Source of the DNA: a virus
Taxonomy: Duplodnaviria; Heunggongvirae; Uroviricota; Caudoviricetes
DNA length: 64,000 bases
IMG/VR virus record: IMGVR_UViG_3300029615_000411
Coordinates: 119,874-183,873 of that record
Reading direction: 5' to 3' (one strand)
Shown here: positions 656-34,958 of the stretch, in pieces
How positions within the stretch are numbered: the first letter of the stretch is position 1
How the letters are laid out: each line of letters opens with the position of its first letter
Notes under the pieces: model-generated
Seen by the model: the letters and a program-made list of their open reading frames with translations, nothing else
Told to the model about the DNA's origin: nothing
Databases searched by the model: none
Position numbers and translations under genes: made by a program

Positions 656-964
656 TCAAGTTGTAGATACAACCGTTTGAATTTTCTCGGCAATCATAGT
701 CGCCATATGCTTTGCTTCTTTTTTCGCACATGCGTCCCAGACCTCAAAATACTGGTAACCATAATAGCGACCATGAATTTCGGAATCACTCCCGCTTTGG
801 TGGAACCAGATAGCTGAACCTTTTTTATCTTGCATTGCCTGCCGCACAGCGACCACAAAGTTCGTTGCATCAGCATCCCAGAAGGGCCGCTCATAATTGA
901 AGTCAATGCCCCAACCGTGGCAAGAATCTGGCTTGTGAATTCTAATAGGAGAAATAGCTGTCAT
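656..964 (-). CDS. hypothetical protein (start moved to ATG 964, MTAISPIRIH...)
   Basis: ORF 656..1000; upstream extension overlaps a terminator hairpin; AAAGGAA-type RBS before ATG 964. Confidence 0.5.
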   Translation of the reverse strand: MTAISPIRIHKPDSCHGWGIDFNYERPFWDADATNFVVAVRQAMQDKKGSAIWFHQSGSDSEIHGRYYGYQYFEVWDACAKKEAKHMATMIAEKIQTVVSTT

Positions 965-982
965 TTTCAATTCATTCCTTTC

Positions 983-1019
983 GCAAAAAATAGCGGCCAT
1001 CTCTGACGAGATGGTCGCA
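983..1019 (-). terminator. leader hairpin plus T-tract downstream of promoter A (GCGACCATCTC-gtca-GAGATGGCCGC TATTTTTT)
   Basis: 11-bp stem, 4-nt loop, U-run; shares CCATCTC/GAGATGG core with the 7386 hairpin. Confidence 0.5.
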
Positions 1020-1084
1020 ATGTAACTTGATTTTAAATTAAGATAATAGAAGCTAACAAATAGCGCTTTTTATTTATCTTAGTG

Positions 1085-1120
1085 CTTTTATTGTAGCTAC
1101 TTTGCAGCAGTTTGCAAGAA
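1085..1120 (-). promoter_or_regulatory. class I promoter A (TTGCAA-16-TACAAT, spacer ACTGCTGCAAAGTAGC)
   Basis: Reverse complement gttcTTGCAAactgctgcaaagtagcTACAATaaaag. Confidence 0.45.
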
Positions 1121-1133
1121 CGGTGTCGTCTTC

Positions 1134-2540
1134 TTAAGCATGTTCAGGCAACCACTGCTGCGGGTAGGCTCGAAGTTTGTTGCGTGGCACACAATCGTTC
1201 AGAGCGGAGTTTTCAGCGAGCGCCATATCGATGATGTAATAGTCATCACCATTACGCATCACATCAATACTCCACTGCCCTACCAGTTCGACAGCAGGAA
1301 GAATCTTCTTAATTTCCTCCAGAATCATCCGAGCACTGTCATCGTATCGAGATTGCAGGATATCCTCGTGCATCTGATAGATGACATAGTCGTGGCGTTC
1401 CTGCGGAGTGCTTGCGTTCTTGAACTTACCCTTCATTACATCGGCTCGCCAATAAGGGCTGATACCCAGCACCTCATCAGCGTCGAAATCGACGAATACG
1501 CGGTACTCAGTATGCAGCGGCAAACCGTTGTAGATGGTCGGGTTGTGTTCCTTGTCCTTGATATATTCCCTGAGCACCCACTCGTTTGTGGTATTCGCAC
1601 CATAGAAGCAGGTATTGTTCAAAGGCGAAGCCATAGAACAGGTCAGATGATTCAGGAACAGGAAATACTCGCCCATCTCATTGATTTCCTTCGGGTCATG
1701 GATATGAGCGTTGCGAAACTCATACTTGGAAGAATAAGTTCCGGTCTTGATGAAGTAATCCTCGTGCTCATCCAGCTTGAATATCCGCTTGCAATAACGG
1801 TTTACGATTTCCTTGGTTACGGGATTCAGGGTTTCAAAACCAAGGCGAGTGAGCTGCAGCATCGGCAGCGGAACACGCAAAATCTTGGTATCAGGAATCC
1901 TGAAGAATTTGTTCCCGCACAACGCTTTTGCCAGCGGCGGAAGCCAAAATCCCATCGTGTTGGGATTCATTTCGAGCATCTGGTAGGTGAAGTCGTCGAG
2001 GTCAAGAATATCAAGACCCTGACGGAACTGGTTGTAGTAGAACTTTTTCATGCGGTCATCGCGTACATCCTTGTACTCGGCGTAATTCTGAAGCAGAATC
2101 TTATACGACGGCTCCGAAATATCGACCTTCACGAGATTTCCTGTCAGCTGAGGTCTGAGCTCTTCCGGGTATTTTTTCAGGTCATTGTTCGTTACCGGCA
2201 CAGCGTATCGAGATGCTGCATAGTTTACATAATATCCGCCGCGTTTATCATTGTAGATGTACAGGCGAGTACCATCTGTTAACTCACCTACGATACGGTC
2301 AATGAGTGTTTCAAGGTCCCGCGTAAACGGCACCCTCTTGTCAAGCATAGCTTTGACAGTAGCGGTATCCCACTGTAAAAAGTTCTCGGATAATGCCCCG
2401 CTGTCCAGCACCTGTTTCTTGTAGGTGTCCTCGAATGTTTTGAGGGCATCAGGGCTGGTTTTCAGCATTGCGGCAAGTTCTTCGTAGGAAAACGATTTAT
2501 CTTCCCTTTTGGTCATCATTTTACCAATTTTGGCAATCAT
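1134..2540 (-). CDS. hypothetical protein (about 468 aa); possibly ATP-grasp-like, unconfirmed
   Basis: Track start 2597 is TTG; in-frame ATG at 2540 is preceded by AAGGAGG. Confidence 0.5.
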   Translation of the reverse strand: MIAKIGKMMTKREDKSFSYEELAAMLKTSPDALKTFEDTYKKQVLDSGALSENFLQWDTATVKAMLDKRVPFTRDLETLIDRIVGELTDGTRLYIYNDKRGGYYVNYAASRYAVPVTNNDLKKYPEELRPQLTGNLVKVDISEPSYKILLQNYAEYKDVRDDRMKKFYYNQFRQGLDILDLDDFTYQMLEMNPNTMGFWLPPLAKALCGNKFFRIPDTKILRVPLPMLQLTRLGFETLNPVTKEIVNRYCKRIFKLDEHEDYFIKTGTYSSKYEFRNAHIHDPKEINEMGEYFLFLNHLTCSMASPLNNTCFYGANTTNEWVLREYIKDKEHNPTIYNGLPLHTEYRVFVDFDADEVLGISPYWRADVMKGKFKNASTPQERHDYVIYQMHEDILQSRYDDSARMILEEIKKILPAVELVGQWSIDVMRNGDDYYIIDMALAENSALNDCVPRNKLRAYPQQWLPEHA

Positions 2541-2566
2541 ATTTTCGATTTCCTCCTTTTTGGGAA

Positions 2567-3598
2567 TCAGGTGTTTGCAAAATTCGGATTCTTCCAAATC
2601 AACTTATTCCCGTAATAGACTTCGGGAATGTACTTGATGGGAATTCTGCGATTGTCTTCGAGTTGCGAATCGTTGTTCGCGATAAACTCCTCGATGCGAT
2701 TTTCTTCACTGCGCGGGGTGATGTTGCAAGTCGAGAAACCTCCACCGTACAGGATATCACTGTTCATCATACCTTTGACCGGATACTTTACTTCGGTCGT
2801 TTTACCGTTGATGTTCAGGACAAGGCGAACGGTTTCGTATTGCTTATATTGCTTAGCAAGTTCCACAAGAAGCCTGAACATGATTTCCTGAGTGTTCGGA
2901 CTATTGTACTTTCTCATATACTCTTCCGTCAACTCTTCCACCACAGCCAATGTAATCCCGTATAGGCGTCCAGACCGCCCGGAATTTGCCTTTTTGATTT
3001 TCTCCATCGTCCGTTCAGCCCAGCCGGTGGGATTAGCAAGATAATCCACTACCAGTTCATCGGCATTTGTGGATGTCAGGCCAAAGCAAGACCCGTTTCC
3101 AATCTCATCGACAATGCTGTCAATAGGGCTGCGATAATTCTTATACCCCTTTATTATGCGACAGAAAGCGTTCTGCCGTGCTATCTTGTCGTAATGACTG
3201 CCCTTGAGAATTTTCTTGTCTTCTTCCGTCACATTCTCTCGGAACATATCGAACAGCTTCTGTGCCATTTCCTCTATGACAGAATCCGAGGTAAAAGAAG
3301 AACGGCAGAAAATCGTTTTGAAGTCCTGTGTTTCATTGACGGTTTTGGCATTGTCGACAACGAGGCAAAGGAAGCGTATCTCTTGGTTGAATGTTACGGG
3401 TTTCTTTTCCAAGATTCCATAAAACCGCTGCCCGTACAAGGCATCTACCTTGTGCTCGCCATTGGCGAGCGGCACACGAATGAAACGGTAGTAGCGCCCG
3501 GACGGTTTTCCGGTATCGGGAATTGTGTTGCCTTCGAACACGGATGCGCCGGATTTGATAGCCTGCTCAAAATCCTCACGAGTTAAATTGATAGTCAT
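2567..3598 (-). CDS. hypothetical protein (about 343 aa)
   Basis: ORF 2567..3649; ATG 3598 (MTINLTREDF) with GAAAGGAAG RBS. Confidence 0.5.
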   Translation of the reverse strand: MTINLTREDFEQAIKSGASVFEGNTIPDTGKPSGRYYRFIRVPLANGEHKVDALYGQRFYGILEKKPVTFNQEIRFLCLVVDNAKTVNETQDFKTIFCRSSFTSDSVIEEMAQKLFDMFRENVTEEDKKILKGSHYDKIARQNAFCRIIKGYKNYRSPIDSIVDEIGNGSCFGLTSTNADELVVDYLANPTGWAERTMEKIKKANSGRSGRLYGITLAVVEELTEEYMRKYNSPNTQEIMFRLLVELAKQYKQYETVRLVLNINGKTTEVKYPVKGMMNSDILYGGGFSTCNITPRSEENRIEEFIANNDSQLEDNRRIPIKYIPEVYYGNKLIWKNPNFANT

Positions 3599-3627
3599 AA
3601 TTTCTTCCTTTCTGTTTTTATTATTTT

Positions 3628-4392
3628 TTAGCTGTTTTCTTCGATGCACAATTTGCTGCTACGAATGTTTTCCAACCATTTTTCATCCATAACATTGCCA
3701 ATACGATACTTCCTCTGGGATTCATAGGACCAGTCACAACCGACGACAGCATCACCGATGGCATTCAGATACAGTTCTCCATCAGTGATATTGATTCCGG
3801 CTTCATTTCTCGGTTTACAATCTCTCTCATATTCAATCACAAGTTCCGAAACTATAGGTTCTCTCTTTAGAATCTGATTTGCGTTGATAGTTTTGGCACG
3901 ACCCTCGTTAATGAGATATTGCTTGCGAAAATCCGTTACTTTATCATTACGATTATATCTCAAACCGCTAAGAATACTCGCACTTTCGCGGGGAATTTCT
4001 TCATGAAAATCATCGCTGCTGATACAAAGACCACACGAATAGTCATCCTTGTCATCGCAATAATTCCACCATTCGAGGCTCGCCAAAGCGAGTTCTACCA
4101 TCTTATCGACGGCTTTCCCGTTGGTTACCATATAAAAACTCCCAACGGAAATGTTTCGCTCTCTTACGGCGTTCAAAGTATAGCGGATAGCAGGAATATT
4201 CAAAGAAATCTCTCCACCCGTGAAGGTCAAGGAACTGATGTATCCTGCATTAGCAAAACTGTCAAGAAACGCATCGATATACTTTTCCTGAATATCGACC
4301 GCCTCCGCATCACCGCGTAAACAATGCGCACAGCACATATTGCAGCGACGCGTAACCTCGATTACCACATTACAAGCGTTTGAAATATACAT
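3628..4392 (-). CDS. radical SAM enzyme (CX3CX2C plus GGE motif) with extra C-terminal cysteines, possible auxiliary Fe-S (twitch/SPASM-like)
   Basis: RRCNMCCAHC = CxxxCxxC; TFTGGEISL SAM-binding motif; 5 further Cys in C-terminal half; AAAGGAG RBS before ATG 4392. Confidence 0.65.
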   Translation of the reverse strand: MYISNACNVVIEVTRRCNMCCAHCLRGDAEAVDIQEKYIDAFLDSFANAGYISSLTFTGGEISLNIPAIRYTLNAVRERNISVGSFYMVTNGKAVDKMVELALASLEWWNYCDDKDDYSCGLCISSDDFHEEIPRESASILSGLRYNRNDKVTDFRKQYLINEGRAKTINANQILKREPIVSELVIEYERDCKPRNEAGINITDGELYLNAIGDAVVGCDWSYESQRKYRIGNVMDEKWLENIRSSKLCIEENS

Positions 4393-4406
4393 CCTATTTA
4401 CTCCTT

Positions 4407-4718
4407 TCACCAATTCTCGTCCGCAAAGCTCTCATTGCGGTCAACGATGATATCCACATCCAGTGGTGTAATTTTACCCAGACCGTAATTCAAGAAGAAC
4501 GAGCCGGGAATGTCATCGACATCGCCCCAGTTCCAGCAACCACAGTTAATTTCAAGCTGTCGTTTGCCTTCGTCCGTCTTGAGATAATCTTTGATTGCGC
4601 CGCGCAGGACGCTTTCCGGGTCATGGATTTGCTCCGGATTATAGCTAAACTGAATCAGTGTGCATTCCACTGCACGGTCAACAATCTCATTAGCAACAAT
4701 TGTAAAAACCTTTGTCAT
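4407..4718 (-). CDS. hypothetical protein (about 103 aa)
   Basis: GAGGAGG RBS before ATG 4718 (MTKVFTIV...). Confidence 0.45.
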   Translation of the reverse strand: MTKVFTIVANEIVDRAVECTLIQFSYNPEQIHDPESVLRGAIKDYLKTDEGKRQLEINCGCWNWGDVDDIPGSFFLNYGLGKITPLDVDIIVDRNESFADENW

Positions 4719-4740
4719 AGTAATCCTCCTCAATAAACAG

Positions 4741-5196
4741 TCAGGCACAACGAACGCGAATGACATTATCATCATTCGACAAGCAAACAATCACGTCCAC
4801 ATCCGGTCCCTCTTTCTCAAGAGCACCTTCAAGGATTGGCTTGATTTTGTGCCATTGATTTTCTGTGATTTTACAGCCGGGGCTCATAAGCAGAATATTT
4901 GCTTCGGCCAGCTTTGCTTTCATGACCACTTGTAGGAAACAACCGTATAAGTATCCGTAATTCACCTTGTTATTTTCAAGACAAATCATATCTGCTATTA
5001 CGGTCCTTTTATTACCATAGCAGTTCACAACATGTCCCAAGTGATGTTCAGATTTGTCATACCGTACCTTGGCATCCGGAAACATGCTTTCAATAGATTC
5101 GTTTTTGAAAACACCACTGCTATCACAAAAAACACAAACGATATTTTTGCCGGGAAACTCCTGACTTGATAAACAGCTTTTTGTCTTTTTTATCAA
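4741..5196 (-). CDS. hypothetical protein (151 aa); start uncertain (TTG at 5196)
   Basis: ORF track; sits downstream of class I promoter B and a leader hairpin. Confidence 0.4.
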   Translation of the reverse strand: MIKKTKSCLSSQEFPGKNIVCVFCDSSGVFKNESIESMFPDAKVRYDKSEHHLGHVVNCYGNKRTVIADMICLENNKVNYGYLYGCFLQVVMKAKLAEANILLMSPGCKITENQWHKIKPILEGALEKEGPDVDVIVCLSNDDNVIRVRCA

Positions 5197-5222
5197 TTTT
5201 TCTTCATCATCCTTTCGGCGAT

Positions 5223-5261
5223 AACAAAAAATACCGCCACCTCTTACGAGATAGCGGTATG
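5223..5261 (-). terminator. leader hairpin plus T-tract downstream of promoter B (ATACCGC...GCGGTAT TTTTTTG)
   Basis: 7-bp stem, 16-nt loop, T6. Confidence 0.4.
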
Positions 5262-5302
5262 TTGATTTTGAATTGTAATTGTATTTTATCTATCGAATAT
5301 AC

Positions 5303-5334
5303 TTAGTATATCGATTTTGCAGCAATTTGCAAGC
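5303..5334 (-). promoter_or_regulatory. class I promoter B (TTGCAA-ATTGCTGCAAAATCGA-TATACT)
   Basis: Conserved TTGCAAATTGCTGCAAA core. Confidence 0.45.
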
Positions 5335-5389
5335 GCAGCTATTTAGTGGCGCTTCAACTTTTTCCGGGGGTTTTATTTTTTCGCTTTAC

Positions 5390-6187
5390 TTACAGCAAAC
5401 TCATCTCTGCACGATACGCATTGGCGTCGTAGCCCCAGATATTACAAGCAAAATCGATTGCTGCGTTACCTTTGCTGGGATAACCGTCGTCAACAAAATC
5501 TCCTTTGCAAAGCGCATACCAGCCACAATTACTTCCGATATCCTCATCCGCGTATTTTACACGAATATTGGCGTGTGGAAATTTACGGCTCAGTTCGACA
5601 ATGGCGCATGCAGGTGTATTCCAAGGGGTTTTAAAATTGATGGCAATTTTCGTATCATTTATTCTACGGATATTCACATCAAAAACATCCCACTTTACGC
5701 CCCAGTTTGCGACACGCCAATAATACCATGAAGCATATCCATATTTTACGGCATTTTCCAAAGCACGCTCCGCTACAGTATCGAACTCTTCGACATTATA
5801 GGGGATACGTTTCAGGTTGATGAGTTTGCTATCTTTCACATGTTCCAGTTTGGAGCGAGCTTCCGCAGCTTCCTTGCAAACACCAACCATATCTGATGCA
5901 GTAAGTTTTTCCTTCCTGTGCAGGAGAAAAGTTTCTCTGCAAATAGCCTTTCTTACGTTTTCCGGATACTTCTCCGGGTCAATTCCATATTTATTTACGG
6001 CCGCCCATGCGAGCATCCTGTCACATGGCGATACGATTTGCAGTGATTCCGGCATAGGAACAACAGACTGAAGCGAAAAATCTTTTTCGCCATCATCGTC
6101 TTTTCCCTTGACACGATTCAGAAAATCCTCCAACTCTGACTGAGAATTGAAAGAAACAGACATGATATTCATGATATTGTTTGCCAT
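5390..6187 (-). CDS. hypothetical protein (265 aa)
   Basis: ATG 6187 with AAGGAG RBS at 7 nt spacing. Confidence 0.5.
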   Translation of the reverse strand: MANNIMNIMSVSFNSQSELEDFLNRVKGKDDDGEKDFSLQSVVPMPESLQIVSPCDRMLAWAAVNKYGIDPEKYPENVRKAICRETFLLHRKEKLTASDMVGVCKEAAEARSKLEHVKDSKLINLKRIPYNVEEFDTVAERALENAVKYGYASWYYWRVANWGVKWDVFDVNIRRINDTKIAINFKTPWNTPACAIVELSRKFPHANIRVKYADEDIGSNCGWYALCKGDFVDDGYPSKGNAAIDFACNIWGYDANAYRAEMSLL

Positions 6188-6204
6188 TTATTTTCTCCTT
6201 TGTC

Positions 6205-6393
6205 TTACGCGGGTACGCGTACGCAAGAATAGTGGCAAGCTCCACAATTCAGGAACTTTGCCCGCTTCATCGCCTCATCCAAGCTGAACCGCGTCGCTTC
6301 GTTAATGTTGGCAGTATCACTCTTACACTCTACGTAAAAACGCACATCTCCAAAAAACGGGTCTTTACGGCTTAGCGCATACATATTTTCCAA
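6205..6393 (-). CDS. small Cys-containing hypothetical protein (62 aa), TTG start
   Basis: GAGGAGG RBS 6 nt before TTG 6393. Confidence 0.4.
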   Translation of the reverse strand: MENMYALSRKDPFFGDVRFYVECKSDTANINEATRFSLDEAMKRAKFLNCGACHYSCVRVPA

Positions 6394-6405
6394 AATAAGT
6401 CCTCC

Positions 6406-7146
6406 TCAAATGTATCTCTCCCAGAACTTTTCGAATTCCTCGCTCGGCATCTGTGCTTCCGTTTCATCCAACAGTCTTTCGTAAGAATCACTGGAAACAT
6501 CGGTGCCAATAAAATCGGCAACGGCATCATGACCGCGCTGCATCAAGGCGTCTTTCAGAATCGCCCAACGACATTCGTGAATGGCATCATCCAGCGTTTT
6601 GTTGCCATCAGGCTGCCAATACTCGCCTGTCTGCTGAATTCTATAAAACTCATCCAGCGCATCATCAACATTGTTTTCGAGAAGAATATCGTCAATAAAA
6701 TTGACAGGATAATCCTTGCCGTTGATTTCCACTTCTGCATAACTGAAACAGTCGTCGTCACACGGCATTGCTGCACAGGTGACATCGAAAATTTCGTGCG
6801 TTTCCTTGTTTACCTTGCAAGGCAACTGGAATGTTGCTCCGGACTCGAAGTAAGAAAAGACAACCGCTTCCTCAACATCGTTGTCGGGGCATTTCGCAGA
6901 CTGGATGAATTCCGGCATAGACAGCACATCAATACTCTCTCTTCGGTCGCCCATGGCAGGATAAACCTTCATGATTGTATAACCATCATGCTGCAGCTTT
7001 CGGATAGCACGGCACAGGTCGAGATGCATTTCATGAAGACTGATGCCACTACCTCGTCCGTCTTTTTTGGTATAGATTTCGACAACTACATCTTCAGAGG
7101 TTGTCTGAACAACATAATAAGTCTTATCATTACAAATCTTAAACAT
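6406..7146 (-). CDS. hypothetical acidic protein (about 246 aa)
   Basis: ATG 7146 (MFKICNDK) with AGGGAG RBS. Confidence 0.5.
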   Translation of the reverse strand: MFKICNDKTYYVVQTTSEDVVVEIYTKKDGRGSGISLHEMHLDLCRAIRKLQHDGYTIMKVYPAMGDRRESIDVLSMPEFIQSAKCPDNDVEEAVVFSYFESGATFQLPCKVNKETHEIFDVTCAAMPCDDDCFSYAEVEINGKDYPVNFIDDILLENNVDDALDEFYRIQQTGEYWQPDGNKTLDDAIHECRWAILKDALMQRGHDAVADFIGTDVSSDSYERLLDETEAQMPSEEFEKFWERYI

Positions 7147-7167
7147 AGCACTTATCTCCCTTCTCAA

Positions 7168-7365
7168 TCAAACAAAAGCCAGAAAATCGTTGGCCGGAAT
7201 CTGTCGCTGGGCATCGTAAGCGGTGCCGTAGACATCATCACCCCAACTGATTTGCACATCCTTCGTCCACAGAGCAAGCTCAGACATTTTTGCTGCCACG
7301 GCTTTTGCGGAGCTGCAGATATACTTCTTGACGGCGTTGTTTTCTTTTACGTTAATTGTAAACAT
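7168..7365 (-). CDS. small hypothetical protein (about 65 aa)
   Basis: AAGGAGG 8 nt before ATG 7365; the longer track ORF overlaps a terminator hairpin. Confidence 0.45.
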   Translation of the reverse strand: MFTINVKENNAVKKYICSSAKAVAAKMSELALWTKDVQISWGDDVYGTAYDAQRQIPANDFLAFV

Positions 7366-7385
7366 TTCAATTTCCTCCTTAACAC

Positions 7386-7419
7386 AACAAAAAACAGCCA
7401 TCTCGATTGAGATGGCTGC
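7386..7419 (-). terminator. leader intrinsic terminator downstream of promoter C (CAGCCATCTC-aatc-GAGATGGCTG TTTTTTG)
   Basis: Perfect 10-bp stem, tetraloop, T6. Confidence 0.6.
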
Positions 7420-7479
7420 ACGAACAGATTTTGAACTAAAACAAGTCAAGGAATTGATACTTTGATTTATCTTAGTTCT

Positions 7480-7512
7480 TTAATTATATCTACTTTGCAG
7501 CAATTGACAAGA
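7480..7512 (-). promoter_or_regulatory. class I promoter C (TTGTCA-ATTGCTGCAAAGTAGAT-ATAATT)
   Basis: Conserved core, 17 nt spacer. Confidence 0.45.
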
Positions 7513-7538
7513 TAGCCACAACAGGTGCGACATCATAT

Positions 7539-7760
7539 TCATGGTACTTTTTCAACGATGTCTTCACCATAAACCACGAATAGACCAGAGCCGTTATCCC
7601 AGCGAACCATGATACTGCCGGTATCGTCTATACCTGAAACTGTGCCGAGTGTTCCAATAGGCGGAGCCTGAATATCATCCATCTTTAACAGTTTCACGCG
7701 TGTTCCGGCTGGATATTCGGCACGGAGCGCAGCAACGATTTCTCGATTTGGAAAAATCAT
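7539..7760 (-). CDS. DUF4314-like small protein
   Basis: RVKLLKMDDIQAPPIGTLGTVSGIDDTGSIMVRWDNGSGL matches the DUF4314 signature common on Firmicutes mobile elements. Confidence 0.55.
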   Translation of the reverse strand: MIFPNREIVAALRAEYPAGTRVKLLKMDDIQAPPIGTLGTVSGIDDTGSIMVRWDNGSGLFVVYGEDIVEKVP

Positions 7761-7776
7761 AAATACACCTCGCCTC

Positions 7777-8325
7777 TTAGTATGTCACGGTGTCAAAGAA
7801 CTCCTGACATTCCTCATCGTTCAACACAACGCCAAAGTACGCAACACGCTCGACGGTAGTTTCCCACACCTTAACGGTACGCGTCATAGGCTGAACGACC
7901 CACGAATGCTGTCGCCAAAGGCCATCTTCACTTAAAGCGTACCCGGTTGCAATCTGACATCTGCCACGATTTGCATCCCACAGATAAGCAGCGTTCTGAT
8001 GACAACGACAATCTTCGCCCTTCTTCATGTACTTGGAGCCATAGAAGAACTGTCCTCGTTCCAGCACTTTCTCCGCATCTTCGTCACGGGTATTGAGCAA
8101 AACCTCATCACCGCCGAAAGTTAAAATTCTATCACGCAGAGCACGCAAAGTCTTTTTCATTTCGTTTGTGAGCCAAGGCGCGGTGGCGTCCTCGTTGTAC
8201 AGCTGCATTGCCTCTACTCGTTTTTTCCATTCCTTATCCATTGGATTCCAGCGGACATGGTTCGCAACCATATCAGGAGAGGTCATGGGCGTTTTGGCAT
8301 TCCAACTAAATTTCTTATTTGCCAT
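7777..8325 (-). CDS. hypothetical protein (about 182 aa)
   Basis: AAAAGGAG RBS before ATG 8325 (MANKKFSW). Confidence 0.5.
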   Translation of the reverse strand: MANKKFSWNAKTPMTSPDMVANHVRWNPMDKEWKKRVEAMQLYNEDATAPWLTNEMKKTLRALRDRILTFGGDEVLLNTRDEDAEKVLERGQFFYGSKYMKKGEDCRCHQNAAYLWDANRGRCQIATGYALSEDGLWRQHSWVVQPMTRTVKVWETTVERVAYFGVVLNDEECQEFFDTVTY

Positions 8326-8339
8326 TATAATACTCCTTT

Positions 8340-8376
8340 TCAACAAAACCGCTTACCTTTTTCAGGTAAGCGGTTA
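8340..8376 (-). terminator. intergenic hairpin (AACCGCTTACC-tgaaaaa-GGTAAGCGGTT TTTGTTG) before gene 7777..8325
   Basis: 11-bp stem. Confidence 0.45.
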
Positions 8377-8384
8377 TATTTTGA

Positions 8385-9047
8385 TTATGCGAGCATGGGA
8401 TATATTTCTTTCTTTACCGCCCTCATAAGAGCGGCAGCATGTGCGGCGTTTTGTGCATTGCCAACACCTGCGCGAGATATTTTTGGATTCACACGCTCAA
8501 TGAAATTTTTCTTATACGGAGCAGAAATGCTCCTTGCAGCATCGATAATCTGTTTCATGTTTTCAGCGTCGATTTTTTGCTGAACGCATAATTTTTGTAA
8601 CCGTGTGCAAAAAGCGTCTTTGTTGTCCCGTACAGAAGTAGAATGATTTTTTGTTTCTTTATGTGGGATGACTGCCTCACAGGCTATCCGTTTAACGCTT
8701 AACCCTTTACTGCACATGGTCTGAATAAGCCCGTCATATCCCTTGTCTGCCGACACGATGATATAATTGCTTTTCTTTCCTGTTGTGCAAAGACTACCAA
8801 GTTTAGCAACAACGTGGAAATCCATGCTGTTTTTCCCTGCATTGGAGACGCAGAACTCTACTTGGTTGACTGGGTACTTTGCCAGAAAAACCTGCAATTC
8901 TTTAAGTGACATGTATGTGGCTTCCGGACCGATGAAGATAATCAGCTTGTCCTTTTTGGTTTTAAAATGCACTACATTTAGCCATTTTTTTTGGACATTC
9001 TCGGTATCTATCAGCCAAACGGTTCGAGTGCGGCTCACACATTTCAC
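8385..9047 (-). CDS. NYN-domain (LabA-like) putative RNase; GTG start overlapping upstream stop as GTGA
   Basis: WLIDTENV ... NAGKNSMDFHVVAKLG ... IIVSADKGYDGLIQ resembles NYN motifs; GTG at 9047 overlaps TGA of the 9044..9340 gene. Confidence 0.5.
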   Translation of the reverse strand: MKCVSRTRTVWLIDTENVQKKWLNVVHFKTKKDKLIIFIGPEATYMSLKELQVFLAKYPVNQVEFCVSNAGKNSMDFHVVAKLGSLCTTGKKSNYIIVSADKGYDGLIQTMCSKGLSVKRIACEAVIPHKETKNHSTSVRDNKDAFCTRLQKLCVQQKIDAENMKQIIDAARSISAPYKKNFIERVNPKISRAGVGNAQNAAHAAALMRAVKKEIYPMLA

Positions 9048-9340
9048 CCCCACACTTCGGTGACTTTTCTGGGGATTCCGTGCTTGTCGATACACTGCCG
9101 GTAAATTGTAAACTTACTGTTCGGGTGCGCCTTCATATAGTCAGCGCGTGCCGCGTCCGTGTTCGCAATCAGTAGATTTTTATCGGCAATAAGAACGCTT
9201 TCCCATCCGGAATCGAGAAGCGTACTGGCAACATCTTTGAAAGATACGTCTGCAGGCGTATCGCACTTACAAACACCTCGTGCGATAGGATGCGCAGTGG
9301 CAATGATTTTTGCTGCCGTCATCACAGTCTCGTAACTCAT
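9044..9340 (-). CDS. hypothetical protein (98 aa)
   Basis: AGGAGG RBS before ATG 9340. Confidence 0.5.
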   Translation of the reverse strand: MSYETVMTAAKIIATAHPIARGVCKCDTPADVSFKDVASTLLDSGWESVLIADKNLLIANTDAARADYMKAHPNSKFTIYRQCIDKHGIPRKVTEVWG

Positions 9341-9352
9341 AGTGTCCTCCTA

Positions 9353-9604
9353 TCACGCCACCTCGAAATACTTTTCGACATCGCTGTTGATAGAACGCGC
9401 AGGAACACCCTTGGTCTTCTCACTGTAGTAGCCACGCTTTTTCAGCGTGTTCTTAACAATAGAAATGCTCTTGTCGCTGCGCATGGTACGCTTTCTCTTT
9501 TCGATGCGTGCAGAACGAATGCGCTTTTCGTACTTCTGCATACGCACAACATCCATGATGATAGGAGCAGTAGTCTCCGCGATATACTCATTAAAAGTTT
9601 TCAT
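9353..9604 (-). CDS. small basic hypothetical protein (about 83 aa)
   Basis: GGAGG RBS; ATG 9604 (GTG alternative at 9610). Confidence 0.45.
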   Translation of the reverse strand: MKTFNEYIAETTAPIIMDVVRMQKYEKRIRSARIEKRKRTMRSDKSISIVKNTLKKRGYYSEKTKGVPARSINSDVEKYFEVA

Positions 9605-9639
9605 ATTCACATATCCTCCGTAATATATTATTTTTCTAA

Positions 9640-9675
9640 ATAAAAAAGGCAGCTATTTTTTCAAAAATAGCTACC
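9640..9675 (-). terminator. leader hairpin downstream of promoter D (GGTAGCTATTTTT-ga-AAAAATAGCTGCC TTTTTT)
   Basis: Near-palindromic 13-bp stem, U-run. Confidence 0.45.
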
Positions 9676-9761
9676 TTTAGTACATTGTGATTGGCGATAA
9701 TTCAATCATACACGCCCATAAAACTCTGGTGCGATGCATTGTGTGATTTTATTTATCGGAT

Positions 9762-9796
9762 AACTATATATTATTAACTTTGCAGCAATTTGCAAG
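9762..9796 (-). promoter_or_regulatory. class I promoter D (TTGCAA-ATTGCTGCAAAGTTAA-TAATAT)
   Basis: Conserved core; flanked by terminators on both sides. Confidence 0.45.
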
Positions 9797-9805
9797 CGCA
9801 GCATA

Positions 9806-9840
9806 CAATAAAAAGCGCCTCCCGTATTACGGGGAAGCGC
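9806..9840 (-). terminator. intrinsic terminator after membrane-protein gene 9852..10451 (GGCGCTTCCC-cgtaatac-GGGAGGCGC TTTTTATTG)
   Basis: GC-rich 9-bp stem plus U-run. Confidence 0.6.
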
Positions 9841-9851
9841 CTTAGTGTTAT

Positions 9852-10451
9852 TTATTCTTTGTTATCCGAAGGAATTTTCGGAGACTTCTTCTTCTCAACG
9901 AAAGCATCAATCGTTCGGCCGAAACGATTAAGAAGCATTGCGCCAAGATAAAGAATGATGCCGCTAATCATGATACCAACATCAAGCGTCTCAAATCCTG
10001 CGAAACTCTTGCAATAAATAGAACTGACTGCGAGAGCGCCAAGCGTTGGCAGCGAAGCAATCGTTACCGTAAGTGCCGCATACACAACACTATTCAGAAC
10101 AGTACCAATACTTGCAATGATGCCGCGCTTTTTAAAAGTGCGCTGCTTATCGTAGGACATCTGATAAGCCCCGATAAGACTTGGTTCACGAATAATGTCG
10201 CGCAGATGCAGCAGGCACCACGCCAAAACAGCACACCCGATGCCGCAGCCGACCTTATAGGCACTCATGCGAGAACCCCACAGGTCATTTGCGTTGGCGG
10301 GAACGACGAACGCCAGAATGTTGAACAGGACGGCAAACAAGACGAACATTGCCATGTGGGGATTCTTGGCAGTGTTGCGAGCCTCGTTCTTTGCCTTACT
10401 GGCGACTTCCTCGGTCTGATTGTGAATTTTTACATTGAGAATCTTTTCCAT
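9852..10451 (-). CDS. integral membrane protein (about 4 TM)
   Basis: Hydrophobic segments; ATG 10451; strong terminator follows. Confidence 0.5.
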   Translation of the reverse strand: MEKILNVKIHNQTEEVASKAKNEARNTAKNPHMAMFVLFAVLFNILAFVVPANANDLWGSRMSAYKVGCGIGCAVLAWCLLHLRDIIREPSLIGAYQMSYDKQRTFKKRGIIASIGTVLNSVVYAALTVTIASLPTLGALAVSSIYCKSFAGFETLDVGIMISGIILYLGAMLLNRFGRTIDAFVEKKKSPKIPSDNKE

Positions 10452-10496
10452 TTTTTTACCTTTCCTTTCGTGTGGACGATTTAGTTGTAAATCGTT

Positions 10497-10814
10497 TTAA
10501 TCTCTGTGATAGCGTTGCATCATACCGAACATAGCCGCAAGCGCCAATGCAAGGTAGATGTAAGTGTATCCCTTTTCAATCATGTTCAGAATCACGATGG
10601 TAAAGCTCGAAAAAGCACCACAATAAAAAGCGGCACCAAGTTTATCGACCAAAAACATCAACATCTGGGCAACGACTGCCGCAGGAACAAGAAGCTTGAG
10701 ACGCTTGGCCTCAATGATTCCGTCCCAGTCAAGAACAGCAATGAAGCTGGCTCCCATGCAGATGACCCAAACAAAAGCGAAAATAAGGGTTGCTGTGTCA
10801 AAAAAGTTACTCAT
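10497..10814 (-). CDS. small 3-TM membrane protein, paralog A; holin-like topology, function unproven
   Basis: GGAGG 8 nt before ATG 10814; about 50% identical to the next gene; ends KRYHR. Confidence 0.45.
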   Translation of the reverse strand: MSNFFDTATLIFAFVWVICMGASFIAVLDWDGIIEAKRLKLLVPAAVVAQMLMFLVDKLGAAFYCGAFSSFTIVILNMIEKGYTYIYLALALAAMFGMMQRYHRD

Positions 10815-10869
10815 ATCAGTTACCTCCAAAATTACTGATGGTTTACGGGTTTATGGACATCGAATCGCA

Positions 10870-11184
10870 TTATCTGTGATAGCGCTTTGTCATGCCAAAC
10901 ATAGCTGCAACCATAATCGCCAAATATGCGTACAAATACAAGTTCTCAATCATTCCAAGAACTGAAATTGTAAGGCTGGCGAACATACCGCAATACAGAA
11001 CAGCACCAATTTTTTTGATGATGAACAGCGTGGCTTGCGCAATGATGGCGACAACGAGAAAAACTTTGATGTATTTAGCCTCAAATAAACCATCCCAATC
11101 GATGGCAAGGAAGATACAAGCCCCCACAGCGAGAGCCCAAACCAAAGCAGCAACAGATGCAACAGCGTCAAAGAAGCTTAACAT
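10870..11184 (-). CDS. small 3-TM membrane protein, paralog B (tandem duplicate)
   Basis: GGAGG 8 nt before ATG 11184; DWDG, AKxxK and MFGMxxRYHR conserved with paralog A. Confidence 0.45.
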   Translation of the reverse strand: MLSFFDAVASVAALVWALAVGACIFLAIDWDGLFEAKYIKVFLVVAIIAQATLFIIKKIGAVLYCGMFASLTISVLGMIENLYLYAYLAIMVAAMFGMTKRYHR

Positions 11185-11237
11185 AGCGAATACCTCCATG
11201 TTTTAAATAGGTTAATGTTCGGACATCTATATAAACA

Positions 11238-11273
11238 GCAAAAAGCCGCCAATGGGACAATCCACTGGCGGCT
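11238..11273 (-). terminator. hairpin plus T-tract after sortase operon / promoter E (GCCGCCAGTGG...CCATTGGCGGC TTTTTG)
   Basis: GC-rich stem plus T5. Confidence 0.55.
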
Positions 11274-11324
11274 CAGTTGCCGATTGCAATAATACAGTTA
11301 AATCATTTGATTTATGTTATGTCT

Positions 11325-11356
11325 CAATTATATTAACTTCGCAGCATAATGCAAGA
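11325..11356 (-). promoter_or_regulatory. class I-like promoter E, divergent copy (TTGCAT-TATGCTGCGAAGTTAAT-ATAATT)
   Basis: Degenerate copy of the core downstream of the sortase gene. Confidence 0.35.
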
Positions 11357-11362
11357 GCTTTT

Positions 11363-12334
11363 TCAGAAGACTTCGTCAAGTTTTGCACATACAATAAAAC
11401 GAGTATCGTAATTATCACTGCCTGAACAGGTGGACAAAATCAAAACCTTATCATTCAATCCAACTTCTGTGGCATACTGATTGTAAGAGTAAGCTTTCAT
11501 ACTTGCAATCTCTGTCAGGAAATACGAATCATCCGGATTCGCAATGGTATAACTTGGGTCAATAGGATAATCGGCAACAGCAAAGATTTTCCATCGTGTC
11601 TGTTGTTCACCCAAAGTAAGATAAATATACCGATGTTCCTTTGCAAAGTTGACATCGCGGAAGTATTTCAAAACACTGAATTTCTTGTGCATACTGTTTC
11701 CGTTGCTATGTCCAAAAATAACAGTTACTCTGTACATGTCATCAACATTGCTGACATTCCATTCGGAGGGAACAAAATAAGCGCCCCAGATACTTTCCCT
11801 ATCGAACTCATTGTGAGTCAGGTAATAATCATCGTCTGTGGGATGCTGCAAAATGGGCTCATCTGTAACATCAACGCCGGGAACGGTTAAGTAACCAACG
11901 GTGTTTTTGGAATACGCTGGCTTTGGTGTCGGTTCCGGTTCTGAATCACTCTCACTTGAATTAGAAGACGGGATAAGAATCGAGGGAGTAGAAACGGGTT
12001 CTTCTACATCGTCGGAGATGTTTCCTGTCTCATATGCAGGGATATGATAGTAATCATACGTCTTCCATCCAATATAGCCAATCATGGCAATAAGAACGAT
12101 GCAGATTACGACCAACAAAACTGTCCAGATGGAAAATCGCCGTTTCTCTTTGTCCTCTGACGCGTCCATCGCATCCATCGATTCATTGTCATCCTCGTCA
12201 TGACTTGCCTTTTGATGAGGGAAGTTTTCACCAGTTCCATCATCCTCATCATTTGGAATGTAATTGTACGCACCAAGTTCCTGCTCGAAATGTTCTTCTT
12301 CAGGCAGTGGTGGAATAATAGGTGTTTTTGCCAT
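11363..12334 (-). CDS. sortase family transpeptidase, class-B-like, N-terminal TM anchor
   Basis: Catalytic LILSTC motif, His in TVIFGHS, conserved Arg in TRFIV; TM RRFSIWTVLLVVICIVLIAMIGYIGW; last gene of the secY operon. Confidence 0.75.
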   Translation of the reverse strand: MAKTPIIPPLPEEEHFEQELGAYNYIPNDEDDGTGENFPHQKASHDEDDNESMDAMDASEDKEKRRFSIWTVLLVVICIVLIAMIGYIGWKTYDYYHIPAYETGNISDDVEEPVSTPSILIPSSNSSESDSEPEPTPKPAYSKNTVGYLTVPGVDVTDEPILQHPTDDDYYLTHNEFDRESIWGAYFVPSEWNVSNVDDMYRVTVIFGHSNGNSMHKKFSVLKYFRDVNFAKEHRYIYLTLGEQQTRWKIFAVADYPIDPSYTIANPDDSYFLTEIASMKAYSYNQYATEVGLNDKVLILSTCSGSDNYDTRFIVCAKLDEVF

Positions 12335-14083: not shown

Positions 14084-15424
14084 TCAATTCAAGAAACCCT
14101 TGTGATGGCGAACCACCAAATGGCTGTTAAGAGAATCGATAACTTCAAGCGTAACACCTGTGACAATCAACAGACTGGTACCGCCAAAGTGCATGTTCAG
14201 ACCTGTAACCGCAGTTGCCAAGATAGGCACACATGCAATAACCGAAAGAACAAATGCTCCCGAACCGGCGAGAGAATGGCAAGCATTGCGCAAATAATCA
14301 CTGGTAGCTTTGCCTGCTCGAATACCGGGGATACTGCCGCCGTTCTTGCGCAGGTTGTTTGCCATTTCGATGGGGTCGAATGTGATGTCGATGTAGAATA
14401 AGTTGAATGCGAAAATCAGGGCTACATACGCAACATCATAAATCCAATTCCGCGAATTCCAAGATGCCAGCGCCATATACAGGCTGGGGTGCTTGTTGTA
14501 ATCGAGGAACATCGTCACGAGAGACGGCATACTGCAAATGGTGGACGAGAAAATAATAGGCATAACACCCGACATAATCAGTTTGATGGGGATATAACTG
14601 GACTGACCAGTGGATGCTTTGTTCCCCACATTTTTACCGGCATACTGAACAGGAACGCGGCGCTCTGCATCGCTTGCGAAAACGACATAGAAGGTGGCCG
14701 CCAAAACAAAGAGGATGACGCCGGGAATCATCAGATAATACCACCATCCATTTTCTTTGCCCATTGCAATAGAGTTCTGGAACAACGAGATGACAGCATC
14801 CCATCTGGAAATGATACCGATAAAGATGATAAGGGAAATACCGTTGCCAATACCTTTTTCGTCAATCAGCCATCCAAGCCAGATGACGATTTGAGAACCA
14901 GCAGTCAGAATGGCAATAACAGTAATGGCTTCCACGACCTGCGAAATGCCGGAAGTGTATTTCATCGCACCGTAGTTCTTCATAATAAAGAAGTACCCGA
15001 TAGCTGTTACGACCGCCAAACCACAACCAACATACTGCGTGATTTTATTGATTTGCTTCTGCCCGCCGATGTCCTTGCTGATTTCTTCCAGTTTCGGAAT
15101 CGCAACAGTCAAAAGCTGGATGATGATGCTTGCGTTGATGTATGCAGATACGCCAATCGCAAATACCGCACACTGAGAAAGTGCGCCACCGGAAACCAGA
15201 TTGTAATAATCCAGTACAGAGGTGCTTCCGAACATAGTCTGAAGCGCAGCGGTGTTTACGAACGGAATCGTAATACCGCAACCCAGACGATAAATCAGAA
15301 GACAAAGGATGGTGAAGAGAATCTTGTTGCGAACATCATCCACCATCAGCTTCTGGAAGATGGTGCTGTTCGAATAAGACTTTTTGAGTTTCGGCTTTTT
15401 CGCCGGATTTTTAATGTTGTCCAA
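14084..15424 (-). CDS. secY: SecY family protein-conducting channel, second non-ribosomal-context copy (SecY2-like)
   Basis: GITIPFV, SQIVIWLGWLIDEKGIGNGISLIIF, VPVQYAGK, YIPIKLIMSGVMPIIFSSTI, NLRKNGGSIPGIRAGKATSDYL, FGGTSLLIVTGVTLEV; TTG start with GGAAGGAG RBS; no rplO/adk/map neighbours. Confidence 0.85.
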   Translation of the reverse strand: MDNIKNPAKKPKLKKSYSNSTIFQKLMVDDVRNKILFTILCLLIYRLGCGITIPFVNTAALQTMFGSTSVLDYYNLVSGGALSQCAVFAIGVSAYINASIIIQLLTVAIPKLEEISKDIGGQKQINKITQYVGCGLAVVTAIGYFFIMKNYGAMKYTSGISQVVEAITVIAILTAGSQIVIWLGWLIDEKGIGNGISLIIFIGIISRWDAVISLFQNSIAMGKENGWWYYLMIPGVILFVLAATFYVVFASDAERRVPVQYAGKNVGNKASTGQSSYIPIKLIMSGVMPIIFSSTICSMPSLVTMFLDYNKHPSLYMALASWNSRNWIYDVAYVALIFAFNLFYIDITFDPIEMANNLRKNGGSIPGIRAGKATSDYLRNACHSLAGSGAFVLSVIACVPILATAVTGLNMHFGGTSLLIVTGVTLEVIDSLNSHLVVRHHKGFLN

Positions 15425-15448: not shown

Positions 15449-15724
15449 TTATCGAGCAAAGAAAGCAACGATGATTCGCATCAGAAAGGCTACAACGGCC
15501 AACTTCGTTGCAAGCCACATGAACCAATCGAGTTTGTCGATACCTTCGTCGAATACATTTGTTGCGGCAGCATCTTTTTTGTTACTGTCGCAATCCCCGT
15601 CAACATGGTTTTTCTTGATTTTGTTGCGATTAAGCACAAACAAAGTTCGAAACAAAGCCCATGTTGCAATACAGAATCCGTATACGATTAGAAGCTCGAT
15701 ACAGAAACTGTGCAAAGACGACAT
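15449..15724 (-). CDS. small 2-TM membrane protein; possible extra translocon subunit
   Basis: 91 aa, two hydrophobic helices; TAATG overlap with upstream gene; directly precedes secY. Confidence 0.4.
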   Translation of the reverse strand: MSSLHSFCIELLIVYGFCIATWALFRTLFVLNRNKIKKNHVDGDCDSNKKDAAATNVFDEGIDKLDWFMWLATKLAVVAFLMRIIVAFFAR

Positions 15725-16401
15725 TAAGCGGATGCGCCGTTGGCGTCAGGAGTCGTATTGGAGGCGGTCTCGGCAACGGCCTCTACCGGAGTTTCCGTGA
15801 CAGTCTCTGCAGGAGAAGTGATATCCCCGGTGATTGTGGGGACGTTGGCATCTTCTGCGACCGACTCATTGACGGGCGCTTCAATAACCGCATCCTTGAC
15901 TCCATCAGCAGTCACTTTCTTTGCTGCGATTTTTGCGAAGTGCTCATTGCGCTTTTCACGGCAAGCCTTGCAGCGGGTGGGGAACTTGTAGTCATGGACG
16001 ACATACCAGTACAGCTCGCGATTGGTAAACTGCAGCTTCTGACCGCAATCTGCGCAGGTGTCTTCCAGACCGATGTTATCCAGCCCGCGCTTCACGAAGT
16101 CGCGATGAATTTTGCGGCATTCCGGGCAGCGGTTCGGCAGAGAATAACCGTGACTCTCGAAGAAATCGCGGTCACGATTGGTGATGTCGAATTCATGACC
16201 GCAGTCAACGCACTTGCGGGTCTCAAACACCTCATTGCTCTTTGCATCAGCTTCCTTGCGAGCTTCATCCTCTGCGCGGCGTTTTGCGAAATCGTCACGC
16301 ATACGACACTCGCGGCACAGCACCTCGCTCTCATTGGCGGTGCTGAACGGCTTGTTGCACTTCTCACAGGTCTTGCGGAACTTCTTTGCTGCATCTTTCA
16401 T
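15724..16401 (-). CDS. zinc-ribbon protein with five CxxC...CxxC units and acidic tail
   Basis: CEKCNKPF..CREC, CVDCGHEF, CPECRK, CADCGQK, CKACREK. Confidence 0.5.
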   Translation of the reverse strand: MKDAAKKFRKTCEKCNKPFSTANESEVLCRECRMRDDFAKRRAEDEARKEADAKSNEVFETRKCVDCGHEFDITNRDRDFFESHGYSLPNRCPECRKIHRDFVKRGLDNIGLEDTCADCGQKLQFTNRELYWYVVHDYKFPTRCKACREKRNEHFAKIAAKKVTADGVKDAVIEAPVNESVAEDANVPTITGDITSPAETVTETPVEAVAETASNTTPDANGASA

Positions 16402-17004: not shown

Positions 17005-17036
17005 TATATTATACCACATAAATATAATGTGGTCAA
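17005..17036 (-). promoter_or_regulatory. class II promoter P1 (TTGACC-17-TGgTATAATATA) for the secY-sortase operon
   Basis: Reverse complement TTGACCacattatatttatgtggTATAATata; spacer palindrome ACCACATaaatataaATGTGGT. Confidence 0.5.
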
Positions 17037-31124: not shown

Positions 31125-31158
31125 ATATTATACCACATTAAAACAAGGTAGTCAACGA
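31125..31158 (-). promoter_or_regulatory. class II promoter P3 (TTGACT-17-TGgTATAATATA)
   Basis: Reverse complement TTGACTaccttgttttaatgtggTATAATata. Confidence 0.5.
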
Positions 31159-33042: not shown

Positions 33043-33076
33043 TATTATACCACAAATAAGCAAAAGAATCAATTAA
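33043..33076 (-). promoter_or_regulatory. class II promoter P4 (TTGATT-17-TGgTATAATATA) for the small Cys protein and flotillin
   Basis: Reverse complement TTGATTcttttgcttatttgtggTATAATata. Confidence 0.45.
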
Positions 33077-34274: not shown

Positions 34275-34307
34275 TTATTGTATCTACTTTGCAGCAAATA
34301 GCAAAGA
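34275..34307 (-). promoter_or_regulatory. class I promoter F (TTTGCT-ATTTGCTGCAAAGTAGA-TACAAT)
   Basis: Upstream of the 33124..34212 secreted protein gene. Confidence 0.4.
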
Positions 34308-34926: not shown

Positions 34927-34958
34927 ATATTATACCACATTTTGCCTTAATGGTCAAC
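34927..34958 (-). promoter_or_regulatory. class II promoter P5 (TTGACC-17-TGgTATAATATA)
   Basis: Reverse complement TTGACCattaaggcaaaatgtggTATAATata. Confidence 0.5.

Follow-up and report, generated by a model that had tools for sequence, protein, structure and literature searches.

A repeated promoter and leader-terminator cassette with predicted promoter-proximal termination control on a Hodor-type megaplasmid

Why would a plasmid repeatedly place a transcription stop between a promoter and the first gene that follows it? The question is raised by a stretch of 64,000 nucleotides (nt), positions 119,874 to 183,873 of IMG/VR record IMGVR_UViG_3300029615_000411 (the whole stretch is hereafter the window, and its coordinates are used throughout), which by the match of its gene set is assigned to a 'Hodor'-type conjugative megaplasmid. 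The original prediction, made from the window alone, had noted that promoters of one form, here class I, are repeatedly followed by a hairpin and U-tract, and had read this layout as attenuation or antitermination control or, alternatively, as a series of leaky insulators. As judged from their sequence, the five units concerned, A–E, are members of one repeated regulatory cassette, not merely a promoter plus a hairpin, and the set of such cassettes constitutes a previously undescribed, plasmid-wide variant of promoter-proximal termination control. Every sizeable open reading frame (ORF) of the window lies on the minus strand, with all genes co-oriented, and all features located below by window coordinates are on that strand.

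Class I promoters take the form TTGC-N4-TGCTGCAAAGT-N3-TAnnnT and occur seven times in the window. The motif TTGCAAATTGCTGCAAAGT gave five minus-strand matches at ≤3 mismatches, against 0.01 expected, and the promoter of E is a sixth, more diverged copy. In all seven window copies, as well as in 51 non-redundant relatives, a −35-like TTGCNN (TTGTCA in cassette C) is followed after exactly 16 nt by TAnnnT, and the promoter is always co-oriented with the genes. The 16-nt spacer holds an invariant, partly palindromic TTGCTGCAAAGT (TTGC-T-GCAA, mostly TTTGC-T-GCAAA). Hexamers, a spacer in the range of 16–18 nt and orientation toward a gene are those of a housekeeping-sigma (sigma70/SigA-type) promoter; promoter activity and start points are predicted, with +1 assigned to a conserved A, 7 nt past the −10.

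Downstream of six of the seven window promoters, a stable hairpin with a U-tract precedes the next ribosome-binding site (RBS), with folding free energies (ΔG) of the core stems between −14 and −23 kcal/mol. As the original prediction had it, all five hairpins of A–E are present, on the minus strand, between promoter and first RBS, at 983–1019 (A, −16.6 kcal/mol), 5223–5261 (B, −21.0 kcal/mol), 7386–7419 (C, −19.0 kcal/mol), 9640–9675 (D, −15.3 kcal/mol) and 11238–11273 (E, −23.1 kcal/mol). They lie 44–89 nt downstream of the −10 hexamer and each run into 5–7 U, and the first candidate RBS or start codon is found ~15–50 nt further downstream, which leaves no room for another promoter. An independent terminator scan returned 35 sites in 20 kb, compared with 18.2 ± 4.6 in shuffled sequences, and all five hairpins were among them.

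Cassette A illustrates the arrangement. Its promoter (1090–1117) consists of TTGCAA, 16 nt containing CTGCTGCAAAGT, and TACAAT, with the predicted +1 at the A of position 1083. The transcript would continue with an A-rich motif, box 1 (CTAAGATAAATAAAA, 1068–1082, +2 to +16), as the 5' arm of a predicted 5'-terminal stem-loop, and with a single-stranded second motif upstream of the hairpin, box 2 (TTTAAAATC, 1025–1033), followed by the leader terminator (983–1018, likewise −16.6 kcal/mol), which is made of GCGACCATCTC-GTCA-GAGATGGCCGC (993–1018) and the tail TATTTTTTG (984–992). The RBS and the candidate starts TTG 970 and ATG 964 lie past this terminator. The promoter of cassette B (5305–5332, TTGCAA..TATACT) has its predicted +1 at 5298 and box 1 CGATAGATAAAAT; box 2 TTCAAAATC (5264–5272), the terminator ATACCGCTATCTC-GTAA-GAGGTGGCGGTAT (5231–5260, −21.0 kcal/mol) and the T-tract together span 5221–5272. 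Cassette C is built alike, with the promoter TTGTCA..TATAAT at 7483–7510, predicted +1 at 7476, box 1 CTAAGATAAATCAAA, and a segment (7384–7435) comprising box 2 TTCAAAATC (7427–7435), the terminator GCAGCCATCTC-AATC-GAGATGGCTG (7394–7419, stem −19.4 kcal/mol) and the T-tract, ahead of an ATG at 7365. In cassette D, the promoter TTGCAA..TAATAT (9768–9795; predicted +1 at 9761; box 1 CCGATAAATAAAAT) precedes AAAGGTAGCTATTTTT-GAAA-AAATAGCTGCCTTT plus T-tract (9635–9678, −15 to −18 kcal/mol), and in cassette E, the promoter TTGCAT..TATAAT (11327–11354; predicted +1 at 11320; box 1 ACATAAATCAAAT), with its diverged spacer TATGCTGCGAAGT, precedes GAGCCGCCAGTGG-ATTGTC-CCATTGGCGGCTT plus T-tract (11236–11274, −23 kcal/mol); the stems of D and E are unrelated to the CCATCTC type discussed below.

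The two remaining window copies depart from this plan, each in its own way. Copy F (34277–34304), a class I promoter after a terminator, has neither box 1 nor a leader terminator, and an RBS-like stretch comes very shortly after it; it is the exception of the window. Cassette H (44132–44290) likewise follows a terminator and carries a class I promoter (44263–44290) and a hairpin with T-tract (44142–44184, −14.5 kcal/mol), after which a class II-like promoter (from 44118) comes next, before the gene of a 2671-residue surface protein, a tandem not seen at A–E.

The layout extends well beyond the window. IMG/VR was scanned with the degenerate promoter pattern TTG-N5-TGCTGCRAART-N3-TANNNT, which matched >107 stretches, many of them with 3–6 matches each in window-related contigs of 20–389 kb. 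When the −10 of the pattern was moved by one base as a control, 43 matches were obtained, none in Hodor-type contigs. After clustering, the non-redundant set of the unshifted pattern comprised 51 promoters of Hodor type and 32 chance matches. With a leader terminator defined as a hairpin plus T-tract of ΔG ≤ −12 kcal/mol ending within 160 nt of the −10, one was present after 47 of the 51 promoters from related contigs but after only 1 of the 32 chance matches. The repeated order of class I promoter, terminator 40–120 nt further on, and gene holds and is specific to class I promoters. A–E and these 47 have the sequence features of intrinsic terminators, with stems made strand-specific by G·U pairs. 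In the related cassettes, the hairpin starts 10–103 nt (mostly 41–89) downstream of the −10, and the predicted terminated RNA measures 38–149 nt, with a median of 91. On a 346-kb contig of this group, the class I promoters found share one strand and are scattered between about 20 and 290 kb. Among genomes sampled at one per species, the strict motif gave 63 matches, none with the full cassette architecture, and these were treated as chance.

The two leader motifs are shared across the set. Box 1 reads (T)AAGATAAAT(A/C)AAA or CCAAAAAATAAAA, with the consensus A(T/A)AAAT(A/C)AAA, and is present in 42 of the 47 cassettes in a fixed register, 9–22 nt past the −10 (+3 to +16 from the predicted start); box 2, TTCAAAATC, is present in 34 of the 47, 4–20 nt before the hairpin. 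Between close variants of the same cassette, substitutions amount to 0.5% in box 1 and 0.7% in box 2, compared with 3.3% in the mid-leader and 3.1% in the loop (27 comparisons, a small sample). The strict ATCTC-type (CCATCTC) stem was found in 21 of the 47 cassettes and the stems of D and E are unrelated to it, so what is universally kept is the terminator together with the promoter and box 1; the CCATCTC stem marks a subfamily, possibly under an extra sequence constraint.

This stem had been singled out in the original prediction as a CCATCTC-N4-GAGATGG core common to two hairpins and as a conceivable protein- or RNA-recognition element. The core is indeed shared by A and C, although not by these two only, as B has it with a G·U wobble (CTATCTC-GTAA-GAGGTGG). 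Box 2 and the hairpin of 28 paralogues were combined in a covariance model, which matched A, B and C in the window with 53–62 bits (B on top, with 62.5 bits), E and D weakly, and otherwise only noise on both strands. In a covariance search for the CCATCTC hairpin in related elements, the check proposed together with the original prediction, 498 kb of Hodor loci gave 97 matches, 70 of them unique. For 68 of the 70, a strict class I promoter is found no more than 150 nt upstream, with the weakest match as the one clear exception. Across 50 distinct sequences, 95% of cells were paired, compared with 32–70% when the partners were slid, changes on both sides occurred in 8 of 10 pairs, and the observed covariation score was reached by 0 of 500 shuffles. 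The lower stem swaps freely between AU, GC, GU and UA pairs, whereas the upper stem YAUCUC/GAGRUG changes almost only by wobble-compatible transitions. Sequence conservation of the upper stem is consistent with a recognition element, and the strict form in no more than 21 of 47 cassettes and the unrelated stems of D and E weaken that idea. A DNA-level operator reading of ATCTC-N4-GAGAT is less likely, since the U-tract and the G·U-compatible substitutions argue for RNA, and a reading as single-stranded-DNA (Frpo-like) promoter hairpins was dropped because the inverted repeats exclude the −35 and −10.

A second set of promoters provides an internal contrast. Class II promoters have a near-consensus TTGAC-N17-TGTGGTATAAT with an extended −10, and lie at 17008–17036, 31127–31155, 33044–33072, 34929–34957, ~35885–35913 and ~44090–44118, where they head conserved surface/secretion and partition genes. 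The five copies examined, which exclude the one at 35913, have a conventional terminator before them and an RBS within 10–60 nt after them, and four of the five are free of a strong leader hairpin. As class II promoters keep the order of terminator, promoter and RBS, a promoter placed before a terminator is a property of class I and not of the plasmid at large.

This order bears on another explanation, namely that the leader hairpins are constitutive, partly leaky terminators acting as insulators or dampers, and that the whole unit is a portable cassette of the PeSL type that would spread and shuffle genes through recombination and work with no dedicated factor. No separate upstream terminator was detected in 34 of the 51 cassettes, so that there the leader hairpin is also the sole stop for the upstream operon; all genes are co-directional; and near-identical leaders stand before different genes, with differing −35 regions and downstream sequence (e.g. 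clusters 8, 10, 11, 35, 36 and 45). Further in its favour, the cassettes occur among small accessory genes, and neither a strict class I promoter nor a significant hairpin-family match was found within 10 kb either side of SecY in a relative with 90% SecY identity, while no antitermination factor turned up among the 153 proteins searched (see below). However, the remaining 17 cassettes have a separate strong conventional terminator just upstream of the −35, which would be redundant if the leader hairpin were an insulator. D and H are window examples, and at D the conventional terminator of the upstream operon (9812–9843) lies directly before the promoter, so that read-through is already stopped there. 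Insulation also leaves unexplained why the class I promoter is always upstream of its own stop when class II promoters have the terminator first, and why boxes 1 and 2 are conserved; moreover, in apparent strength (mean −19.9 kcal/mol, 5–7 U) the leader hairpins equal the terminators at gene ends. In view of the 17 upstream terminators, D included, the class II order and the restriction of the hairpin family to sites downstream of class I promoters, leaky insulation as the sole function is weakened, and we regard the insulator and portable-cassette explanation as rather unlikely.

The PeSL units of T4-type phages, conserved sigma70-type promoters with a terminator-like stem-loop of ~100 bp in all (PMC2839356, PMC4122927), are the precedent for that explanation, as they both stop transcription and recombine. 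The present cassettes resemble them in being composites of promoter and stem-loop that recur between small accessory genes, in intergenic regions, and extend as far as the Shine–Dalgarno sequence of the following gene. The PeSL stem-loop, however, mostly lies between the −35 and −10 or over the −10, where it stops upstream transcripts but lets the promoter's own transcripts escape, whereas the hairpin here is placed 40–100 nt downstream of the start, inside the transcript.

If the stop acts on the promoter's own transcripts, the leader might be expected to release it by refolding, as in classical attenuation. For short leaders (B, and the G type among relatives), no structure is predicted ahead of the terminator; leaders of this kind, of 35–47 nt, are found in about one third of the cassettes. 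The longer ones (A, C, D and E) are predicted to form a 5'-terminal stem-loop from +1, with box 1 as its 5' arm and with compensatory changes at +1 to +3 among paralogues (ACU:AGU, AUC:GAU, UAU:AUA, AUU:AAU); this stem rests on single-sequence folds, as RNAalifold on full-length long-type leaders missed it owing to misalignment of the 3' arm by MAFFT. No competing antiterminator fold was found: when the terminator's 5' arm is allowed to pair with upstream sequence, the mean gain is −1.7 kcal/mol, compared with −1.4 kcal/mol for shuffled arms and a terminator mean of −19.9 kcal/mol. Rfam returned nothing at gathering score for the whole window and only sub-threshold hits at E ≤ 1 for 900–11500, and no ATG is visible by eye in the leaders of A and B, no systematic screen for leader peptides having been made. 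Of the two forms of control named in the original prediction, classical attenuation is therefore unsupported, as there is neither an alternative fold nor an Rfam match, whereas processive or factor-dependent antitermination survives as the leading, inferred option.

The same leader architecture could also be taken to mean that the terminated RNAs, with their median of ~91 nt, are themselves the product, i.e. multicopy plasmid small RNAs acting in trans as regulator, sponge or chaperone ligand, the downstream genes being expressed by incidental read-through. A 5'-terminal stem-loop at the predicted +1 (A, C and relatives), a single-stranded A/U box, a terminator and a U-tail are what such an RNA would show, its 5' box is conserved, and cassette H has its own class II-like promoter next, from which the class I unit there can stand alone. 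This explanation nevertheless appears quite unlikely: in most cassettes the next RBS lies within 20–40 nt of the U-tract, which leaves no space for a second promoter and ties the unit in cis to the gene, the orientation is always that of the genes, no Rfam match was obtained, and no complementarity to a target was identified.

Pairing across the terminator raises a further possibility. In a subset of cassettes (L003, L008, L140, L143, L152 and others, as well as B at 5195–5298 in the window), the 5' leader is complementary to the sequence after the U-tract. Cognate pairing of the two segments averaged −6.05 kcal/mol, compared with −5.25 kcal/mol for non-cognate combinations (permutation p = 0.0024), covarying pairs were seen (e.g. 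AGCAAACAAA:UUUGUUUGCU and GGCAGCAAAAA:UUUUUGUUGUC), at least six pairs formed in 29 of 45 minimum-energy folds, and the extreme 5' UCC sometimes pairs with the downstream Shine–Dalgarno sequence. Such pairing could form only in read-through RNA and would extend the terminator stem rather than compete with it. The leader could thus be a processing or stability module of the read-through mRNA, its 5' end locked in a helix that protects from 5' decay or modulates translation, with termination secondary. The excess of cognate over non-cognate complementarity and the covarying pairs speak for such a module. We nonetheless hold it to be very unlikely, as the effect comes from a subset (~14 of 45), A-rich versus U-rich composition explains much of it, and the conserved U-tract right after a strong hairpin, seen in nearly all copies, is left without explanation.

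Taken with the absence of a competing leader fold, the fact that the shared features are the promoter and 5' box and not the hairpin sequence points to a trans-acting factor loaded at the promoter. In the proposed mechanism, each cassette would run from the promoter through a start ~7 nt past the −10, box 1 and usually a TTCAAAATC box to the terminator, which would end ~60–150 nt from the start, and on to the RBS of the first gene. By default, most class I transcripts would stop at the hairpin and yield an RNA of ~90 nt, and because of this default stop operon expression would depend on read-through; the genes probably turn on only when RNA polymerase is let through. Read-through would be granted by a factor acting on RNA polymerase at the class I promoter or immediately downstream of it, following the antitermination logic of lambda Q or RfaH–LoaP. 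A factor loaded in this way would explain how polymerases arriving from upstream are stopped while locally initiated ones pass, such that one signal could open many operons with upstream transcripts still halted. Termination in vivo, like the existence and nature of the factor, is predicted here from sequence, and we infer factor-dependent or processive antitermination as the most economical reading. That the dozens of operons headed by such cassettes on the ~346-kb plasmid are read through by means of a trans-acting, promoter-engaging factor is a tentative proposal, which we consider plausible but short of probable. The stronger version, in which most accessory operons, at least 30 on one 346-kb replicon, belong to a single antitermination regulon, closed by leader terminators and opened together by a plasmid- or host-encoded factor that would load at the promoter and 5' box without any cis antiterminator RNA, with transcripts from upstream still blocked, is possible but doubtful.

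Several observations weigh against promoter-loaded antitermination. Family searches (Pfam, PHROGs and NCBIfam) detected no NusG/KOW, Q, sigma, ANTAR or RNA-binding antiterminator domain in 153 proteins, 50 from the window and 103 from another ~90 kb of the same plasmid (~150 kb in total of ~346 kb), most of which match no family. Nor does the A-rich box make a convincing pause element of the −10-like kind, since its second position is T or A; AAAAAT variants match nAnnnT and ATAAAT variants do not. Constitutive partial termination would give the same sequence pattern, and the second promoter past the hairpin of cassette H fits a stand-alone short transcript. Finally, the related loci were fetched via the promoter pattern, which in part imposes the promoter conservation observed. 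The samples free of this bias are the window itself and one SecY-anchored locus (L222), and both agree with the remaining loci; searching for the hairpin itself, with gaps of variable length, was not selective enough to give an unbiased promoter set, and the SecY-based search for relatives reached only copies of 89–99% identity. The insulator, small-RNA and stability explanations and antitermination are not mutually exclusive.

Known systems share parts of the proposed logic. Lambda late control combines the pR' promoter, a Q-binding element, a promoter-proximal pause and the tR' terminator. As in the Q module, a promoter is followed here at short range by an intrinsic terminator, with a short RNA by default, and a conserved DNA element inside the promoter, putatively bound by a factor, is combined with a conserved initial transcribed sequence; read-through would likewise be promoter-specific and independent of the terminator sequence. 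Unlike lambda, with one unit per phage, the present element is a plasmid of a Bacillota host with dozens of units per replicon, the part of the plasmid that was sampled yielded no protein of the Q family, and the A-rich box offers no clear −10-like pause signal. KorA and KorB of IncP plasmids control a global regulon through operators inside many promoters. The short palindrome TTGC-T-GCAA, which dozens of promoters on a single plasmid carry in an identical position, is reminiscent of this and suggests one regulator for many operons; the Kor operators, however, are not coupled to leader terminators, and the regulator here is putative.

Gram-positive conjugative elements employ the conAn processive antitermination system and the zipper-type attenuator cATT (pLS20), or canT with terminator T1 (Tn916), in which terminators near the starts of transcription units are combined with element-encoded antitermination that suppresses spurious or incoming transcription (PMC8191782, PMC13401043, PMC11658703). 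Terminators near operon starts on a Gram-positive conjugative element are common to these systems and the present one, and we count them as a precedent for antitermination. They differ in that pLS20 and Tn916 have one copy heading a single long conjugation operon and large structured leader RNAs (a 456-nt leader, or a cis-acting RNA), whereas the leaders here are 38–100 nt long, in many cases lack structure, and recur ahead of numerous short operons. The zipper feature of pLS20 cATT, an upstream segment that complements the terminator arm, is absent from the cassette leaders, and about one third of these have no predicted structure before the terminator, unlike the sizeable structured cis RNAs of RNA-based processive antitermination (put, EAR, conAn RNA and canT).

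As to the element itself, the window is near-identical to roughly 112–176 kb of IMG/VR contig IMGVR_UViG_3300023499_000220 (345,980 bp), the 346-kb contig referred to above. Family searches with the window proteins identified SecY, a trigger-factor-like FKBP protein and a class B sortase, as well as a flotillin, an actin-like partition protein and a Dam methylase. Two giant ORFs encode MBG-domain surface proteins, one of 2671 residues with seven MBG (YGX-type) domains (35992–44007) and one of >6521 residues that is cut by the window end (44372–63937), and both match the giant secreted proteins reported for Hodor megaplasmids. These conjugative megaplasmids of human-gut Bacillota exceed 300 kb and were described in 2026 as abundant, prophage-carrying elements (bioRxiv 10.64898/2026.02.21.707213); nowhere in its full text do the terms promoter, terminator, sigma, antitermination or intergenic appear. 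The giant ORFs and the IMG/VR labels had pointed to a crass-like or jumbo phage, an identity that was given up for that of a Hodor megaplasmid. Neither megablast of 12 kb nor sensitive blastn of single cassettes gave a match among INPHARED phages or PLSDB plasmids.

Co-orientation is extreme for a plasmid of this size, as it comprises all genes of the 64-kb window and all class I promoters over ~270 kb of the 346-kb contig. Cassette E is followed first by two adjacent paralogues encoding small hydrophobic proteins of ~110 residues (10497–10829 and 10870–11199), whose 38-nt 3' ends are 82% identical. The operon after cassette B (1134–4413) places a radical-SAM protein (3628–4413) beside proteins of 360 and 487 residues without a family match; the guess of an anaerobic ribonucleotide reductase for this operon found no support in Pfam. 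The 389-kb relative with 90% SecY identity (IMGVR_UViG_3300045988_181067, L225) carries two mini-arrays (its positions 14234–14534 and 15636–15808) of five and three copies, respectively, of a ~37-nt repeat with a period of 67–68 nt and with flanks near-identical per array. On the opposite strand, the repeat ends in ...GCAGTCTGCGTGACTGCATAAGATTGAAA and resembles a type I-C-like CRISPR repeat, of which none was found in the window; Cas7 and Cas5d family matches are present among the proteins of the 346-kb contig.

One recognisable cassette heading dozens of operons amounts to a map of the transcription units of the plasmid, and its compact parts, namely promoter, 5' box and terminator, lend themselves to reporter assays in Bacillota. 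If read-through is factor-dependent, promoter-specific antitermination would no longer be confined to individual operons of phages or of conjugation but would span an entire replicon, a replicon-wide Q-like logic that is undescribed for plasmids. Read-through at a defined hairpin would then be a concrete switch, one that may decide when a 350-kb element expresses its cargo.

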